Shown here: piece by piece, positions 13,013 to 30,152 of the stretch | Layout: the number at the start of each line of letters is the position of its first letter | Position numbering within the stretch: position 1 is the first letter of the stretch | IMG/VR virus record: IMGVR_UViG_2609459797_000003 | DNA: 38,348 bases | Reading direction: 5' to 3' (one strand) | From: a virus | Lineage: Duplodnaviria; Heunggongvirae; Uroviricota; Caudoviricetes | Position numbers and translations under genes: made by a program | Notes under the pieces: model-generated | The model's database searches: none | What the model saw: only the letters and a program-made list of their open reading frames with translations | What the model was told of the DNA's origin: nothing

Positions 13013-13029
13013 TTTTGTGGAGAAAGTTG

Positions 13030-13401
13030 ATGCGTGATATTCAAATGGTTCTTGAACGTTGGGGTGCATGGGTGGCAAATAATCACGAGGATGTCACTTG
13101 GTCGTCTATTGCTGCAGGATTTAAAGGACTAATCCCTTCAAAAGTAAAATCCCGCCCGCAATGTTGTGACGATGACGCGATGATCATTTGTGGGTGTATG
13201 GCTCGCCTGAAAAAGAACAACAGCGATTTGCACGATTTATTAGTGGATTACTATGTAGGAGGTATGACATTTATGGCGCTTGCCCGTAAACATGGGCGTT
13301 CTGATTGCTGGGTTGGGCGTTTATTGCAAAAAGCGGAAGGAGTAGTTGATGGTATGTTGATAATGCTAGATATTGAATTGGAAATGGAACGTAAAATTTA
13401 G
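13030..13401 (+). CDS. late-gene antiterminator Q (QuuD-type)
   Basis: '[34 protein letters not shown]...[30 protein letters not shown]' matches my recollection of DLP12 QuuD; position immediately upstream of the lysis module. Confidence 0.7.
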
Positions 13402-13630
13402 TTATGTTATGAATAAATAAATGCTAATGATTTTTGTAAGATAGCTCATTTTATGTCCATAGGTGATGTATGCATTAATATGATTAATTTGTCTCCTTAT
13501 AAAAATAAGATTATGTAAATAATAACAAAGGGTGACATTATTAAGTGTTGCTTTTTCTTAGTAAGTTGTTATCCTACTTAAGGTTGAATGATATTGTATC
13601 GAATAAAGTTGCTTATATAGAATTATTTTT

Positions 13631-14158
13631 ATGTTATGGCTTATTGAGTTAGTTAATAGGATGATTGAATCAATGCTTTCAAATGTAATTTTAAGTGGAG
13701 CTATGTCCACGTTATTGGCTGCATTTCTAATTTTTGTGTTTAAGGAGTATATAAAAAGGCCACCTAATTTTTCAGGGGTGTTTGAGATCGAGTGTAAAAC
13801 GCTAAAATCATCATATAATTCATATGTAAACCTAACTACATTCTATACATTAGTGTTGATTTGTGATAATAACACTATAGAAGGACATATTGAAAAAATA
13901 AAAGATATCGAAAATGATGGGAATGAAAGAAAATATATTGGCGTGCATCGCAATATTGGCGATGTCAATGGTGTAATTAAAAGAAATTACTTAAGACCTA
14001 ACCATGCTTCGTTGAATATAAAAATGCATGGTGATAAGAGGGATTATACTATTATGCTATATTTTAAGAAGGTGAATACGAAAAATATGAAAGGAACTTT
14101 TTTATCTACTGCTGCAGATTCTTCTGGAGATGTTAAGTGGCAGCGAAAAAATTTTTAA
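13631..14158 (+). CDS. AT-rich cassette gene 1: membrane-anchored protein of unknown function
   Basis: 175 aa; hydrophobic helix 'VILSGAMSTLLAAFLIFVF' near the N-terminus followed by 'KEYIKRPP'; Lys/Asn-rich low-GC codon usage. Start uncertain (ATG at 13631, 13661 or 13673). Confidence 0.55.
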   Translation: MLWLIELVNRMIESMLSNVILSGAMSTLLAAFLIFVFKEYIKRPPNFSGVFEIECKTLKSSYNSYVNLTTFYTLVLICDNNTIEGHIEKIKDIENDGNERKYIGVHRNIGDVNGVIKRNYLRPNHASLNIKMHGDKRDYTIMLYFKKVNTKNMKGTFLSTAADSSGDVKWQRKNF

Positions 14159-14781
14159 TTTATTTACTGTCGTTGCCATATTTAATAATGGCTTCGATTA
14201 TCATAAAGCTTAAAGTTAAAAGTATAATTGATGATTATGAGAAATGTACTACTTATATTTACTGTAACTCGAAGAAATATAATAACATTTCTCCTGTTAT
14301 GATTGATATATTAAGGTTAGCAGAGGATCATCGACAATTATTGCATAGAGGGATTGACCCCATTGCAATCATTAGAACTTTTTATCTGAGGATATTTAAA
14401 AATATACACCAAGGAGCGAGCACTATAGAACAGCAGTTTGTGAGAACTATAACTAAAAGATACGAAAAAACAATACGTAGAAAGATAAGAGAGCAGATAT
14501 TGGCTATATTGATTAGAAATGTATCAACTCCAGATGATATATGTAAGTGTTATCTTTCTTGTTGTTACTATGGCTATGGAACTTATGGGATAGATAATCT
14601 TTTAAAAAAGAAACAAAATATCAGTGATTTTGATATTGTTGCAATGATTAAATATCCATTCAGGGGAGAAGTTGTTTCAGTTACAGAGGAACGATTTAAA
14701 CATAGGTCGCTCTATCTTTCCACTTTATATAAATTAAATGCACAAAGGGATATGATTTTTTTGCGAAAATATAGTGGGTGA
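14137..14781 (+). CDS. AT-rich cassette gene 2: membrane-anchored GT51 (MtgA-like) peptidoglycan glycosyltransferase homolog
   Basis: GTG start with GGAGA Shine-Dalgarno 6 nt upstream, overlapping gene 1 by 22 nt. N-terminal hydrophobic 'FLIYLLSLPYLIMASIII'; then 'AEDHRQLLHRGID' (EDxxFxxHxG-like), 'GASTIEQQ' (GxSTxTQQ-like) and 'RRKIREQ' (RKxxE), with both candidate catalytic Glu present. Confidence 0.6.
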   Translation: MAAKKFLIYLLSLPYLIMASIIIKLKVKSIIDDYEKCTTYIYCNSKKYNNISPVMIDILRLAEDHRQLLHRGIDPIAIIRTFYLRIFKNIHQGASTIEQQFVRTITKRYEKTIRRKIREQILAILIRNVSTPDDICKCYLSCCYYGYGTYGIDNLLKKKQNISDFDIVAMIKYPFRGEVVSVTEERFKHRSLYLSTLYKLNAQRDMIFLRKYSG

Positions 14782-14978
14782 TTATGTTAAGTGTATTTTA
14801 TTATGTGTCAAAAAGTTTAGTCATCTCTGCTTAATGTATAATCGTGAATGTTTTTATTCAGATTTTATGCATGTCAAGTTGATGAGTGCCGTCGACATAA
14901 GATATGGGGATAATGAATAGTTTACAATCGTAAATAATAGAATATCCTGTTAAAAGTGGTTACTTCTCCACGCAGCTT

Positions 14979-15008
14979 AAACCCGCCGTCGAGCGGGTTT
15001 TGTCGTTT
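14979..15008 (+). terminator. rho-independent terminator between cassette and holin (tR'-like position)
   Basis: 'aaACCCGCcgtcgaGCGGGTtttgtcgtttc': 6-8 bp GC stem, 6-nt loop, U-rich tail. Confidence 0.6.
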
Positions 15009-15152
15009 CTGGGTCTGGGGATTCCTTGGTCCTAGCCTATCCCGCAGTTATCCATTAACTCGGCTTCTTTGACGTTTCCGCTTCTGATTTGCGGTACATG
15101 ATGTTTCCTCAATTTGCACCTGCTGTATCAGCGAGGTGAGAGATAACTACAA

Positions 15153-15479
15153 ATGCCTCATAACCCAAATACCTGGCTGGAGTTGGTCCAGAGCTGGTGG
15201 CGTGGAGACACACCGCTGGGCGCAGTGATTATGTCGATCGTTATGGCTGGTTTACGTATTGCCTATTTTGGCGGCGGGGGCGGCTGGAAACGAAAAACAC
15301 TCGAAATTTTGCTCTGTGGCGCTCTGACGCTGACATTTGCATCCGCTCTTGAGTATGTCGGATGGCCTAAATCACTTTCTGTTGCCATTGGTGGTGGTGT
15401 TGGGCTGATCGGTGTCGATGCTATTCGTGGGGCAGCAATGCGAGTAATCGGTAACAAATTTGGTAGCTCGAAGGAGTAA
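15153..15479 (+). CDS. holin, lambda S family (class I)
   Basis: 108 aa; hydrophobic segments and charged C-terminus align with lambda S ('AYLRGRYNGG...' versus 'AGLRIAYFGGGGG...'); two Met near the N-terminus suggest a dual-start motif. Confidence 0.8.
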   Translation: MPHNPNTWLELVQSWWRGDTPLGAVIMSIVMAGLRIAYFGGGGGWKRKTLEILLCGALTLTFASALEYVGWPKSLSVAIGGGVGLIGVDAIRGAAMRVIGNKFGSSKE

Positions 15480-16448: not shown

Positions 16449-16742
16449 TTATTGTGAGCAATACACCCGCGCTTCCAGCGGAGTATAAATGCCTAAAGTA
16501 ATAAAACCGAGCAATCCATTTACGAATGTTTGCTGGGTTTCTGTTTTAACCACATTTTCTGCGCCGCCACAAATTTTGGCTGCATCAACAGTTTTCTCCT
16601 GTCCAATTCCCGAAACGAAGAAATGATGGGTGATGGTTTCCTTTGGTGTTACTGCTGTCGGTTTGTTTCCAACAGTAAACGTCTGTTGAGCACATCCTGT
16701 AATAAGCATTGCCAGAGCGGCAGAAAACAACATTTTTTTCAT
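16449..16742 (-). CDS. bor: Bor lipoprotein (serum-resistance protein)
   Basis: From internal Met 'MKKMLFSAALAMLITGCAQQTFTV...' the 97-aa product closely matches lambda Bor; lipobox ITGC. Confidence 0.9.
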   Translation of the reverse strand: MKKMLFSAALAMLITGCAQQTFTVGNKPTAVTPKETITHHFFVSGIGQEKTVDAAKICGGAENVVKTETQQTFVNGLLGFITLGIYTPLEARVYCSQ

Positions 16743-16922
16743 CTTATTATCCTGCATTGTTAAAAACGGCAGAATCCTATGTGACAACAATTAAACGATA
16801 GTTAAATGGATTGATGAAAATTAAAACTATATAGGTGTACGGTCAGACTATTGGAGGTAGTCAGGATTTGAATGTCAGTCTGTTGTCGGCATTCTGGCAA
16901 TGCAATTTGGATAAAGCGGGGA

Positions 16923-17045
16923 TTAAAAAGATAGAGGCGAGCCGGTCAGGTAGAAATGAATCAGGCTCAAAGTGAAGCGGAAAAGGTCTGTGGCACAAGC
17001 TGATGCAGCCATAATTACAGCCTGATGATTTGTGGAATGAAACAT
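16923..17045 (-). CDS. small hydrophobic ORF (40 aa) with consensus Shine-Dalgarno (tentative)
   Basis: Minus-strand 'tAAGGAGGttcaacATG' gives a perfect ribosome-binding site at 6-nt spacing; product MFHSTNHQAVIMAASACATDLFRFTLSLIHFYLTGSPLSF. Below the ORF-track length cutoff. Confidence 0.35.
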   Translation of the reverse strand: MFHSTNHQAVIMAASACATDLFRFTLSLIHFYLTGSPLSF

Positions 17046-17267
17046 GTTGAACCTCCTTAATTGATGTTATTCGAGTGATGAAGGCATTCTGTCCTTCTAT
17101 AGTGTCCAGTAAATCAAACAGGAAACTTGTCCAACGTGTTGGACAAGCCTCTCCATTAGTGAGTTGTATTGATCACAACTCTACAAAGAATTCATTACTG
17201 GGTAGATGAAAATAGTTTCACGATGAATGGAGGAGGCTATGTCGGTGGCTTCTTCATTGGAGTACAT

Positions 17268-27697: not shown

Positions 27698-29530
27698 ATG
27701 GCTGAATTTGAGCTTAAGGCGTTGATCACCGGTGTCGACAGACTTTCTCCCGCGCTGTCGAAAATGCAAAAGAAAATCCGGGGATTTAAACGCCAGGCGG
27801 AAGAAGCATCACAGGGTGGGCTGGCGCTTGGTGGCGGACTGGCAGCGGGTCTGACGCTTTCCCTGAAATCTTATGCCGATCAGGAAAACGCCGCCACCGG
27901 GCTGAAAGTCGCCATGATGGATGCGAACGGCGAGGTCGGAAAGAGCTTTCAGGGCATCAATAAACTGGCTATTGGCCTGGGTAACCAGCTACCCGGTACA
28001 ACGGCTGATTTCCAGAACATGATGCAGATGCTGGTGCGTCAGGGGATCCCGGCAGAAAATATTCTTGGCGGTGTGGGTAAAGCGACAGCTTATCTTGCGG
28101 TACAACTAAAAAAAACACCGGAAGCGGCTGCTGAGTTTGCTGCAAAGATGCAGGATGCTACCGGAACGGCGTCAGAAGACATGATGGGGCTGTTCGACAC
28201 TATCCAGAAGGCGTTTTATCTGGGCGTTGACGATACCAACATGTTGTCCTTCTTCACTAAAACCAGTTCTGTTCTGAAGATGGTGAACAAGGACGGTCTT
28301 CAGGCTGCACAGAGCCTTGCCCCCATCAGCGTCATGATGGATCAGATGGGGATGAACGGGGAGTCGGCAGGTAATGCCCTGCGAAAAGTTATCCAGTCCG
28401 GATTAAGCGTTAAGAAAATCAGGGACGTCAATAAAGTTATGGCCCGTCAGAAACTCGGGGTACAGCTCGATTTTACTGACGGCAAAGGAAGTTTTGGCGG
28501 TCTTGATAACATGTTTAAGCAACTGGCAAAGCTGCGAAAACTTACCGACGTTAAGCGAACAGGTGTACTTAAGGCAATATTTGGTGATGATGCCGAAACC
28601 CTTCAGGTGGTCAATGCGCTGATCGATAAAGGAAAGGATGGTTACGATCAGATCCAGCAAAAGATGAATAAACAGGCCAGCCTGAATAAACGTGTTCAGG
28701 CACAGCTTGGTACGCTGTCCAACCTGTGGGAGGCAATGACGGGGACCGCAACTAACGGCCTTGCGGCTATTGGCGGCGCATTTTCTGGTGACGCCAAAAA
28801 TATCACGCAATGGCTGGGGGAGTTGGGGGAAAAATTCACGAAGTTTGCGGATGAAAATCCCCGGGTTATTCGCGCCGTCGTCGGGCTTGCTGCCGGTCTT
28901 GCGATTCTGAAACTGGGATTGATGGGCGTGGGCAGTGCCATCAGCATTGTCAGCAGGATCATGTCGATGACGCCGATTGGCATGATTGCGACGGCGATAG
29001 CCCTGGCTGCGGGATTAATTATCACTAACTGGGATGTTGTCGGACCTTATTTCAAGAAGCTCTGGGAAACCATTGGTCCTTATTTTGAGGCTGGCTGGGA
29101 ACTCCTTAAGAAAGTTTTTGCCTGGTCGCCGCTGGGGATGGTGATCAATAACTGGGGGCCGGTTGTTAAGTGGTTTCAGGATATGTGGGACAAGCTGAAG
29201 CCAATTATTGAGTGGTTTACCGACAGTTCCGGTGACACGGTCGATGCCATTAACTCTGCGCAGTGGGGCGCGGGTGCTTATGATGCTTATGGGACGGGAA
29301 TACCGGCACGGGGATACACTCCTTATCCGGCGGTGGATCCGGCTCAGGCAAACAACGCCTCCGATGCCACAGGCTCGAATCCCTTCATGATTAATAAAGC
29401 TACCGCGCCAAAAGTTGATGGTGAGATCAAGGTATCATTTATAAATATGCCACCAGGTATGCGGGTTACGGAAACACGCTCCAGTGGCATTGATATAAAT
29501 CACGATGTTGGCTATACCCGATTTTGGTAG
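27698..29530 (+). CDS. tail tape measure protein
   Basis: 610 aa; Ala/Gly-rich with hydrophobic central segment; tape-measure position. Confidence 0.85.
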   Translation: MAEFELKALITGVDRLSPALSKMQKKIRGFKRQAEEASQGGLALGGGLAAGLTLSLKSYADQENAATGLKVAMMDANGEVGKSFQGINKLAIGLGNQLPGTTADFQNMMQMLVRQGIPAENILGGVGKATAYLAVQLKKTPEAAAEFAAKMQDATGTASEDMMGLFDTIQKAFYLGVDDTNMLSFFTKTSSVLKMVNKDGLQAAQSLAPISVMMDQMGMNGESAGNALRKVIQSGLSVKKIRDVNKVMARQKLGVQLDFTDGKGSFGGLDNMFKQLAKLRKLTDVKRTGVLKAIFGDDAETLQVVNALIDKGKDGYDQIQQKMNKQASLNKRVQAQLGTLSNLWEAMTGTATNGLAAIGGAFSGDAKNITQWLGELGEKFTKFADENPRVIRAVVGLAAGLAILKLGLMGVGSAISIVSRIMSMTPIGMIATAIALAAGLIITNWDVVGPYFKKLWETIGPYFEAGWELLKKVFAWSPLGMVINNWGPVVKWFQDMWDKLKPIIEWFTDSSGDTVDAINSAQWGAGAYDAYGTGIPARGYTPYPAVDPAQANNASDATGSNPFMINKATAPKVDGEIKVSFINMPPGMRVTETRSSGIDINHDVGYTRFW

Positions 29531-29558
29531 CCAGGATTCCCCTCACATGTATTGCTGG

Positions 29559-29586
29559 TTGTAAGTCATAAATAGAGTGATAGAAT
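29559..29586 (+). promoter_or_regulatory. sigma70-like promoter for tail-operon moron
   Basis: -35 TTGTAA (29559-29564), 16-nt spacer, -10 TAGAAT (29581-29586), ~35 nt upstream of the ATG at 29622. Confidence 0.45.
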
Positions 29587-29621
29587 TAATGCACATTTAG
29601 AAAAATGTTAATAGGCGAAAA

Positions 29622-30152
29622 ATGAAAGGCTATATCACAGCAAGTGTAATTCTTGGAGCAGCGGCTATTTTTTCATCTCTCATAATCTCTGGCAACATCT
29701 CCTTTAAAGATGAACATATTATTCAGTTATCTGGAGGAGCCATAAAACTTGGTGATGTTTATAAAGAAAATAAATTGATAAGTGCAAAGATTATTTTTCC
29801 AGATAATCAGGGTGAACAGATTCTTGTTGTCGACGGCAATCCTGAAAACTTTAAGGAGGATTTTCAGGAGAAATTAAATAAAGTAATAAAAACTTTAAAT
29901 GCGTCAAAGAAAAAAGATGAAGAGAAAGTTAGCCTGGATAATTTAAGTGTTATTGAAGAGTCTAAACTAGAGCTCGTTTCTGCGGTGCGTTACTCTGCTC
30001 AGTATGTTCCTATGTTTACTCTGACGCTGGACAAAAAAGAAATTACCATGCCTAAAAATACGGTAATATTTCCATTTGCCAGCGATGAAACAGCTAAGTA
30101 TTTAAATGAACAACAGCAAAAGTATAAAGATTCGTTGTTTCTGACCCGCTAA
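29622..30152 (+). CDS. AT-rich moron: secreted or membrane-anchored protein of unknown function
   Basis: 176 aa; N-terminal 'MKGYITASVILGAAAIFSSLIISG' signal or anchor; Lys/Asn/Glu-rich; flanked by its own promoter-like sequence and terminator. Confidence 0.55.
   Translation: MKGYITASVILGAAAIFSSLIISGNISFKDEHIIQLSGGAIKLGDVYKENKLISAKIIFPDNQGEQILVVDGNPENFKEDFQEKLNKVIKTLNASKKKDEEKVSLDNLSVIEESKLELVSAVRYSAQYVPMFTLTLDKKEITMPKNTVIFPFASDETAKYLNEQQQKYKDSLFLTR

Follow-up and report, generated by a model that had tools for sequence, protein, structure and literature searches.

Introduction

The gene pair described here lies in an AT-rich block between the antiterminator gene Q and the lysis genes of a 38,348-nucleotide (nt) caudoviral prophage sequence (IMG/VR record IMGVR_UViG_2609459797_000003; this whole stretch is called the window below). 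The only precedent that we found for the pair is Audmula, an anti-phage gene of the lactococcal plasmid pUCCL630 that has been validated by experiment (PMC11381338, PMC12184496). Audmula is a single gene of 392 amino acids (aa) with 4-5 membrane helices and a GT51-like domain, and it protects against ceduoviruses, with a thicker wall and delayed lysis. Escape occurs by mutations within the phage endolysin's muramidase domain, and the proposed mechanism is a modification of the wall that slows this endolysin (PMC11381338, PMC12184496). The pair resembles Audmula in being carried by mobile elements and in having a membrane-bound domain of the GT51 type. Audmula, however, is one gene with 4-5 helices, comes from a Gram-positive host and has no barrel partner, whereas here there are two open reading frames (ORFs), ORF1 and ORF2, and ORF2 has a single helix; natural ORF1-ORF2 fusions differ from Audmula as well, since they have a barrel instead of the 4-5-helix bundle. 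Neither the leading organisms nor the 60 sampled rows included a Lactococcus when ORF2 was searched by relaxed tblastn against plasmids, in a collection whose inclusion of pUCCL630 is unconfirmed, and the comparison with Audmula is by description. As read from sequence, the pair looks like an undescribed candidate anti-phage module that recurs across bacterial phyla; no report of it was found in the literature, including two large defence-discovery papers.

Each of the two proteins can also be set beside better-known ones. ORF2 shares with the GT51 domains of MtgA and the class A penicillin-binding proteins (PBPs) its Pfam domain, fold, catalytic glutamates, motif order and spacing, N-terminal helix and size, but unlike them it is accessory, low in guanine plus cytosine (GC), mobile-borne, and nearly always paired or fused with a member of the ORF1 family. 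ORF1 is built like Cap15 of CBASS and OptE of Panoptes, with N-terminal membrane helices followed by an 8-stranded beta-barrel of ~125 residues. Cap15 and OptE are effectors that disrupt the inner membrane and are governed by nucleotide binding to the barrel (PMC12657218). Their operons, like the pair, consist of two genes, one of them for an enzyme partner, but that partner is a nucleotide cyclase for Cap15 and OptE and a predicted wall polymerase for ORF1. With lambdoid morons (stx, and bor and lom elsewhere) the cassette has in common a deviant GC content, variable presence and, apparently, regulatory DNA of its own. The Sp (spackle) protein of phage T4 blocks the wall-cutting step in the entry of superinfecting phages. 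As a small, membrane-associated, phage-encoded protein that guards the wall against an incoming lysozyme, Sp may work like the pair, but it is an inhibitor protein and not an enzyme, and the analogy is one of action, with no homology.

Results

A foreign two-gene block downstream of Q

A self-contained module of two genes for membrane proteins, the block was acquired horizontally and occupies a variable slot between Q and the candidate late promoter. Its 1,555 nt (13393-14947) have 29.0% GC, more than 5 standard deviations (s.d.) lower than the remaining 1,555-nt windows of the 38-kb window (mean 52.1%, s.d. 4.4, minimum 43.3). In 300-nt sliding windows, GC is 27-31% from ~13300 to 14950 and 45-58% on both flanks, a profile that agrees with the abrupt fall at the Q stop codon and the recovery near 14950 reported by the initial annotation, whose hand count of 14 G+C in the line 13501-13560 should have been 13. 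On the left, the edge is at ~13393: the same Q allele, found at 94% identity in many other Escherichia coli prophages, aligns only up to 13392, which is 9 nt short of the Q stop codon. The foreign DNA therefore begins 9 nt within Q and provides its last ~3 codons. On the right, DNA common to sibling prophages begins again at 14943-14948. Neither direct nor inverted terminal repeats were found around 13393-14947, and there is thus no sign of a transposon or of a site-specific insertion scar at the block. An Rfam scan of 13200-15300 gave no family match, and a tRNA search found none in the gap between Q and the lysis genes. The features of the block, followed by the genes on either side of it, are:

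13393..14947, no strand: AT-rich foreign block, the entire cargo segment (GC profile, end of the Q-allele match, sibling prophages)
13402..13630, + strand: non-coding leader holding a candidate promoter of the cassette, 23.6% GC (alignment with loci L005, L016 and L015)
13631..14158, + strand: ORF1, 175 aa, membrane helices and 8-stranded beta-barrel (ORF list, structure model)
14126..14130, + strand: GGAGA Shine-Dalgarno sequence of ORF2, inside the 3' end of ORF1 (sequence reading; 6 nt ahead of the GTG)
14137..14158, + strand: overlap of ORF1 and ORF2, 22 nt (ORF list)
14137..14781, + strand: ORF2, 214 aa, GTG start, membrane helix and GT51 domain (Pfam, PDB sequence matches, alignment, AlphaFold2)
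14782..14947, no strand: AT-rich 3' non-coding tail of the block
13015..13401, + strand: antiterminator Q, 128 aa, intact, full-length Pfam match (PF06530, E=2.9e-51)
15153..15479, + strand: lambda-family holin, first gene of the lysis cassette (PF05106)

The two co-oriented, overlapping genes, the GGAGA before the second start codon and the hydrophobic N-termini of both proteins had all been read from the DNA by the initial annotation. The ORF list, the position of the GGAGA, the hydropathy of ORF2 and the modelled helices of ORF1 bear these readings out. A further ORF of 48 aa (14774-14920) has no family match and is probably spurious. With the block in place, Q has a cargo-specific C-terminal tail (13393-13401); in FDAARGOS_1277, Q is annotated as a pseudogene with an internal stop, and in the window it is intact.

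ORF2 is a predicted membrane-anchored GT51 protein

ORF2 is classified by its sequence as a GT51 domain that is not an orthologue of MtgA, MrcA, MrcB or PbpC. Residues 46-154 match Pfam PF00912 (E=1.6e-23, 83.4 bits against a cut-off of 27), and the NCBIfam models of PBP1A, PBP1B, PBP1C and MtgA match as well, all far under their equivalog cut-offs; the MtgA model TIGR02070, for example, gives 44.9 bits against a cut-off of 182.65. ORF2 also aligns to solved GT51 domains (5u2g, 2oqo, 3vmq and others, from PDB sequence matches). Residues E63, D64, R66, H70, G72, D74, G93, S95, T96, I97, Q99, Q100, R103, R115, K116 and E119 are invariant in 51 ORF2-family sequences from several phyla. E63 (in AEDHR) and E119 (in RRKIRE) align with the ED and RK..E catalytic motifs of 5u2g and 2oqo, and we take them to be equivalent to the GT51 catalytic glutamates E233 and E290 of E. 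coli PBP1b. The subfamily is marked by the motifs EDHR..H.G.D, QGASTIEQQ, RRKIRE and KYP, and differs from standard GT51 in having EDHR for ED..F and QGASTIEQQ for GGSTITQQ.

The AlphaFold2 model of ORF2 has a predicted local distance difference test (pLDDT) score of 90.9. In Foldseek searches it matched 3nb6, 2oqo, 3d3h and 3vmt at probability 1.0 with TM-scores of 0.6-0.7 (target-normalised up to 0.70), and these fold matches are the glycosyltransferase domain of Aquifex PBP1a and full-length Staphylococcus aureus MtgA. The N-terminus of ORF2, FLIYLLSLPYLIMASIII, has a mean Kyte-Doolittle hydropathy of 2.34 over 18 residues, and the GTG start that places it there is backed by the aligned N-termini of homologues. 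In the family, positive charge is greater on the N-tail than beyond the helix (+1.67 vs +0.55), and an N-in, C-out arrangement is therefore favoured. By these predictions, ORF2 is membrane-anchored and has an intact active site, and it would have polymerase activity.

ORF1 joins membrane helices to a small beta-barrel

ORF1 founds a family for which a profile search gave at least 296 clusters at 50% identity. In its structure model, helices at residues 2-17 and 19-40 are followed by an 8-stranded beta-barrel at 47-172. One strong membrane helix is seen in 75 of 85 scored family members and two in 7. Scans of Pfam, NCBIfam, PHROGs and PADLOC gave no match for ORF1 (in Pfam, none at E≤1); UniRef names one homologue 'SMODS-associating 2TM beta-strand rich effector'. 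The best natural structural match of the barrel is the CBASS effector Cap15, at the level of fold only, and on this model we describe ORF1 as Cap15-like in architecture and do not claim homology to Cap15. The initial annotation could name no family for either protein. For ORF2 this was mistaken, given the PF00912 match, the catalytic glutamates and the GT51 fold; for ORF1 it stands as far as sequence families go, but the model revealed the Cap15-like architecture.

The ORF1 barrel probably faces the cytoplasm, since lysine and arginine are enriched after the membrane helix (1.44 vs 0.61 per ten residues) and variants that have two membrane helices, or a signal-peptide-like segment and a membrane helix, place the barrel inside. 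The homologue in Pseudomonas syringae (L014, 5159-6022) is 287 aa long and has an N-terminal segment like that of a signal peptide or lipoprotein; an additional region of ~100 aa precedes its membrane helix and barrel, an order that places the barrel in the cytoplasm.

The two families are paired across phyla and sometimes fused

Enterobacter, Leclercia, Citrobacter, Serratia, Rahnella and Cedecea contain homologues of both proteins that are 56-76% identical. The overlap of the two genes is again 22 nt in loci L005, L016 and L014, and measures 35 nt in L009 and 64 nt in L012. An upstream gene also overlaps that of the more remote GT51 relatives in Yersinia, Pectobacterium and P. syringae, and the upstream proteins are homologous to ORF1 (BLASTP E 8e-17 to 8e-36). 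Translational coupling, which the initial annotation had proposed for the window, is supported by this conserved overlap in other genera and by the natural fusions. Chance ORFs in AT-rich DNA were considered and rejected, as both proteins are conserved across phyla.

ORF1-family alignments contain no stretch conserved enough for genome scanning, and the scan, of a collection with one genome per species, used the GT51 signature [QE]G[AG]STIEQQ. It identified at least 578 loci. Among the best 80 of these, a same-strand gene of the ORF1 family comes immediately upstream of the GT51 gene in 61, and in 2 the pair is a single fused gene. Hosts of the pair include Acidobacteriota, Geobacter, Binatia, Fibrobacterota and Moraxellaceae. 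No third gene common to the loci was found next to the pair. As judged from these sequences, the pairing of the two families is obligate and has sometimes been turned into a fusion.

The fusions are varied: among 110 sampled ORF1-family proteins, 3 also have a GT51 domain and 1 has an Amidase_3 domain. The last of these (P0257, 383 aa) consists of an ORF1-family membrane helix and barrel fused to Amidase_3 (N-acetylmuramoyl-L-alanine amidase), with no membrane helix between them. The barrel module has therefore been combined with more than one kind of wall enzyme. In the proteins fused to GT51, the helix between barrel and GT51 is weakly hydrophobic, and fused and solo relatives of ORF2 alike are without a clear membrane helix. 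A solo GT51-like gene occurs in ~16 distant loci, mostly of Bacteroidota and the Candidate Phyla Radiation (CPR), and has neither a hydrophobic N-terminus nor a partner. This solo clade (L072, L075, L078, L089-L092 and L096-L099; Bacteroidota, CPR and some Proteobacteria) lacks both a signal peptide and an ORF1 partner, and its GT51-like protein is predicted to be cytoplasmic, which is unexpected for a lipid II polymerase. Such proteins could possibly act at the inner leaflet, or could reach the wall only after a breach of the membrane.

The pair travels on mobile elements

The block is foreign and variable, and the pair travels on mobile elements. Elsewhere it was found in the cargo region of a P4-like satellite beside PhD/ParE and AbiE, next to the integrase of a P2/186-like prophage, on an IncF NDM-4 plasmid, and as lone chromosomal islets amid metabolic genes. 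GC of the pair is below that of its flanks in 56 of 61 loci (means 42% vs 52%). The nearest neighbours of 37 loci are mixed, and some are HerA, NERD-UvrD, restriction-modification genes, PDC-S23 and IS110.

The window's prophage adjoins tRNA-Thr(CGT) at 1369-1444, with proA beside it in a near-identical genome, and its integration site is thrW. A 2.5-kb query from Q to holin found the cassette in 3 of 5,426 complete E. coli genomes at a coverage of at least 80%; parts of the query, mostly the flanking Q and lysis genes, match in 3,944 of them. An index of the assembly collection lists the exact ORF2 protein in 1,268 blocks, and in E. coli prophages the cassette is a common accessory cargo. In the E. 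coli occurrences shown, ORF2 always comes directly after Q or a Q fragment and, wherever lysis genes survive, before the holin. The cassette is kept in decayed prophages, one of them reduced to an integrase, a Q fragment and the cassette (L109) and another with a lysis region truncated by IS1 (L106). Among viral genomes, the pair was found on only 7 of 2.9 million IMG/VR contigs, and among INPHARED phages none matched ORF1 and none had a close homologue of ORF2.

Sibling prophages fill the same slot with a minus-strand DUF6650 gene, with two minus-strand hypothetical genes or with a 339-aa hypothetical gene, and where the same Q allele is joined to a different lysis cassette, the stretch between the two holds unknown genes and an orphan DNA methyltransferase. 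The DUF6650 protein (L003, 1944-2690, - strand, from a sibling prophage of strain GCUET01) matches PADLOC PDC-M68A (E=7.5e-27) as well as endonuclease effector models, including SAVED-HNH types, and the Shedu SduA model; it is likely, by these matches, to be a defence nuclease at the allelic position. The Q-holin slot is thus a genuine variable-cargo site with at least one allele that resembles a defence gene, and most alleles of this slot in the thrW prophage family are still uncharacterised. The initial annotation had called the cassette inserted, variably present cargo of a hotspot, and the counts in E. coli genomes and the alternative cargos of siblings support this. The marks by which morons are recognised all characterise the block: its composition is deviant, its presence varies among prophages that are otherwise similar, and the phage can do without it.

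Two other places in the window were noted in passing. A second low-GC patch (32-40%, 29400-30152) directly follows the tape-measure gene (27698-29530) and holds a plus-strand ORF (29622-30152, 176 aa) whose N-terminus is hydrophobic and which matches nothing in Pfam or PADLOC. In the near-identical prophage of strain FDAARGOS_1277 a different gene, a minus-strand 'OB-fold protein' gene, takes that position, and 29400-30152 is therefore another variable cargo slot. Between the spanin genes and the HNH/terminase genes, the slot at 16449-17170 holds iss/bor (PF06291); its occupants in siblings are DUF6236, a ClpP-like protease with a 182-aa ORF, DUF6979 and other unknowns, none of which has a PADLOC match.

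The cassette appears to lie outside the late operon

Two putative regulatory features lie at or just beyond the right end of the block:

14915..14950, + strand: candidate late promoter PR', on the block's right edge (promoter scan; its place relative to conserved DNA downstream, compared in four prophages)
14979..15000, + strand: intrinsic terminator, probably tR' (terminator scan; near-invariant in the sibling alignment; ~150 nt upstream of the holin)

The candidate PR' consists of TTTACA, a 16-nt spacer and TATCCT at 14921-14948, and each compared prophage has a promoter-like sequence just upstream of the shared DNA, in the variable part. The arrangement would fit a lambdoid PR' followed by tR', which would place the cassette between Q and PR' and outside the Q-dependent late operon. 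A terminator scan found none between ORF2 and the conserved hairpin at 14979-15000. Upstream of ORF1, a block of ~40 nt (~13573-13612) is partly conserved ahead of homologous pairs in other genera (L005, L016, L015), which suggests a candidate promoter that travels with the cassette. The stx genes, to which the initial annotation had compared the cassette, are downstream of PR' and tR' and depend on Q. The comparison holds for the position between Q and the lysis genes, but the cassette appears to be upstream of the late promoter and terminator and would not be a Q-dependent late gene.

Discussion

We favour, tentatively and with slightly more doubt than belief, the reading that the pair is a wall-directed anti-phage module acting in superinfection defence. 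We infer this function from what the sequences show, namely a foreign, variable block, a GT51 domain with intact catalytic residues, a membrane protein with a barrel, obligate pairing with occasional fusion, and carriage by mobile elements; the context of the pair and the Audmula precedent make a defence role plausible. In the mechanism that we propose, ORF2 would be the enzymatic arm, a membrane-anchored GT51 peptidoglycan glycosyltransferase, and ORF1 would be its sensor or gate, produced in step with it and with the barrel in the cytoplasm. Once switched on, or perhaps constitutively, an extra, uncoupled glycan polymerase would remodel the wall or deplete lipid II, and the wall-cutting steps of the incoming phage, in entry or in endolysin-driven release, would be mistimed or blocked. 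This would resemble the action proposed for Audmula in Lactococcus. The defence role, the assignment of sensor and effector, the topology and the effect on the wall are likewise inferred.

Several points weigh against this reading. Many of the neighbours across the 37 loci are ordinary metabolic or housekeeping genes, and the pair cannot be called enriched in defence islands. No PADLOC v2 model matches either protein. The resemblance of ORF1 to Cap15 is shared by others, as designed barrels, outer-membrane proteins and avidins score similarly against ORF1, and Foldseek against the PDB found nothing at E≤1e-3. ORF1 is also unlike the S-2TM-beta family, and is not filed as a member of it: most relatives have one strong helix, 16 aligned members had no Pfam hit (E≤10) and 110 members had none to PF18153 (E≤0.01). 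Profile searches of PDB sequences with the 16- and 110-sequence ORF1 alignments returned chance hits only, and no Cap15. Nor is there a nucleotide cyclase (CD-NTase, mCpol or DAC) in the window or the annotated loci, and the 25 Pfam families found most often among 149 neighbouring proteins include none. On the side of the enzyme, a wall-modifying protein that acts constitutively would need no cytoplasmic sensor partner, and wall thickening would be a less obvious defence in a Gram-negative cell with its thin sacculus. In the fusions, the wall enzyme may be on the same cytoplasmic side as the barrel, which would misfit a simple periplasmic polymerase. Finally, H-NS may bind and silence DNA this AT-rich in E. 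coli.

A bolder version, which we consider unlikely if still worth serious thought, would make the pair an immune module of a new kind, set across the inner membrane. Here a cytoplasmic, ligand-binding, Cap15-like barrel would gate a lipid II polymerase, runaway or misplaced glycan polymerisation would be the effector arm of an abortive infection, and the fused and solo forms would perhaps work at the inner leaflet. We know of no described defence system that kills or arrests by consuming a wall precursor.

It is also unlikely, in our view, that the roles are reversed. In such an abortive infection, ORF1 would oligomerise and breach the inner membrane as Cap15 and OptE do, and the GT51 protein would be the sensor, which would report a disturbance of lipid II or glycan strands, by phage tail lysozymes or phage blocks of wall synthesis, and release ORF1. 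The helices-plus-barrel build of ORF1 is that of these membrane-disrupting effectors (PMC12657218), and AbiE and ParE lie beside the pair in the P4-like satellite. The Amidase_3 fusion would be sensible if the barrel, in the manner of a holin with its endolysin, opened the membrane to a wall hydrolase. However, the catalytic glutamates and the pyrophosphate-binding arginines and lysines of the ORF2 family are invariant across phyla. This argues for catalysis over mere ligand sensing, and therefore for ORF2 as an enzymatic effector and not a passive sensor. The helices-plus-barrel build, moreover, comes with no sequence homology of ORF1 to the Cap15 and OptE families, and one strongly hydrophobic helix, not two, is the rule among ORF1-family members.

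A distinctly unlikely alternative is lysogenic conversion with no link to phages, in which the pair would be an auxiliary, regulated peptidoglycan polymerase used under envelope stress, for example from antibiotics that act on class A PBPs or in particular niches. The sporadic, low-GC distribution across distant phyla and the presence of the pair in cargo slots of satellite, prophage and plasmid speak against a synthase kept for host fitness, although ORF2 shows every hallmark of a GT51 enzyme and matches MtgA in size, the pair in many loci is an islet on its own amid metabolic genes, with no mobile or defence neighbours, and the cassette outlives the decay of its prophages. The partner would moreover be a Cap15-like barrel protein and not a known PBP activator, and the MtgA-model score of ORF2 is far under the cut-off for a true MtgA.

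More improbable still is a selfish addiction module of the toxin-antitoxin type, in which GT51 activity or the barrel would be toxic, the partner would neutralise it and post-segregational killing would maintain the pair. A compact operon of two overlapping genes, carriage by plasmid and satellite next to classical toxin-antitoxin genes, low GC and patchy distribution would all suit such a module. Yet single-polypeptide fusions are hard to square with a labile antitoxin, and neither protein resembles a known toxin or antitoxin.

A role as lysis accessory of this prophage, in which the pair would tune the wall or the timing of lysis, is highly improbable and was rejected: the pair is immediately upstream of the lysis cassette, and lambda-type lysozymes share with GT51 the glycan bond that they act on, but outside E. 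coli it has no lysis genes nearby (chromosomal islets, satellite, plasmid), it is nearly lacking from the IMG/VR and INPHARED genomes searched, at this site sibling prophages have cargo that is unrelated, or no cargo of this kind, it outlasts the lysis genes in prophage remnants, and the cassette appears upstream of PR' and tR', outside the late operon.

If wall-directed defence is the right reading, a cell-wall enzyme would be coupled to a Cap15-like barrel with no nucleotide cyclase, which raises the question of what such barrels sense; that a lipid II polymerase should be joined to a barrel of this kind would be unexpected to a specialist. Members of the GT51 subfamily that have no export signal may work from inside the cell. 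The slot between Q and the late promoter in the thrW prophage family is a cargo hotspot to mine. As a common cargo of E. coli prophages, the pair could affect the host range of phages used in therapy, the action of antibiotics that target the envelope, and the timing of lysis. And if the pair does defend, immunity by wall enzymes would no longer be confined to Audmula, one plasmid gene of Lactococcus, but would reach Gram-negative bacteria and many phyla.

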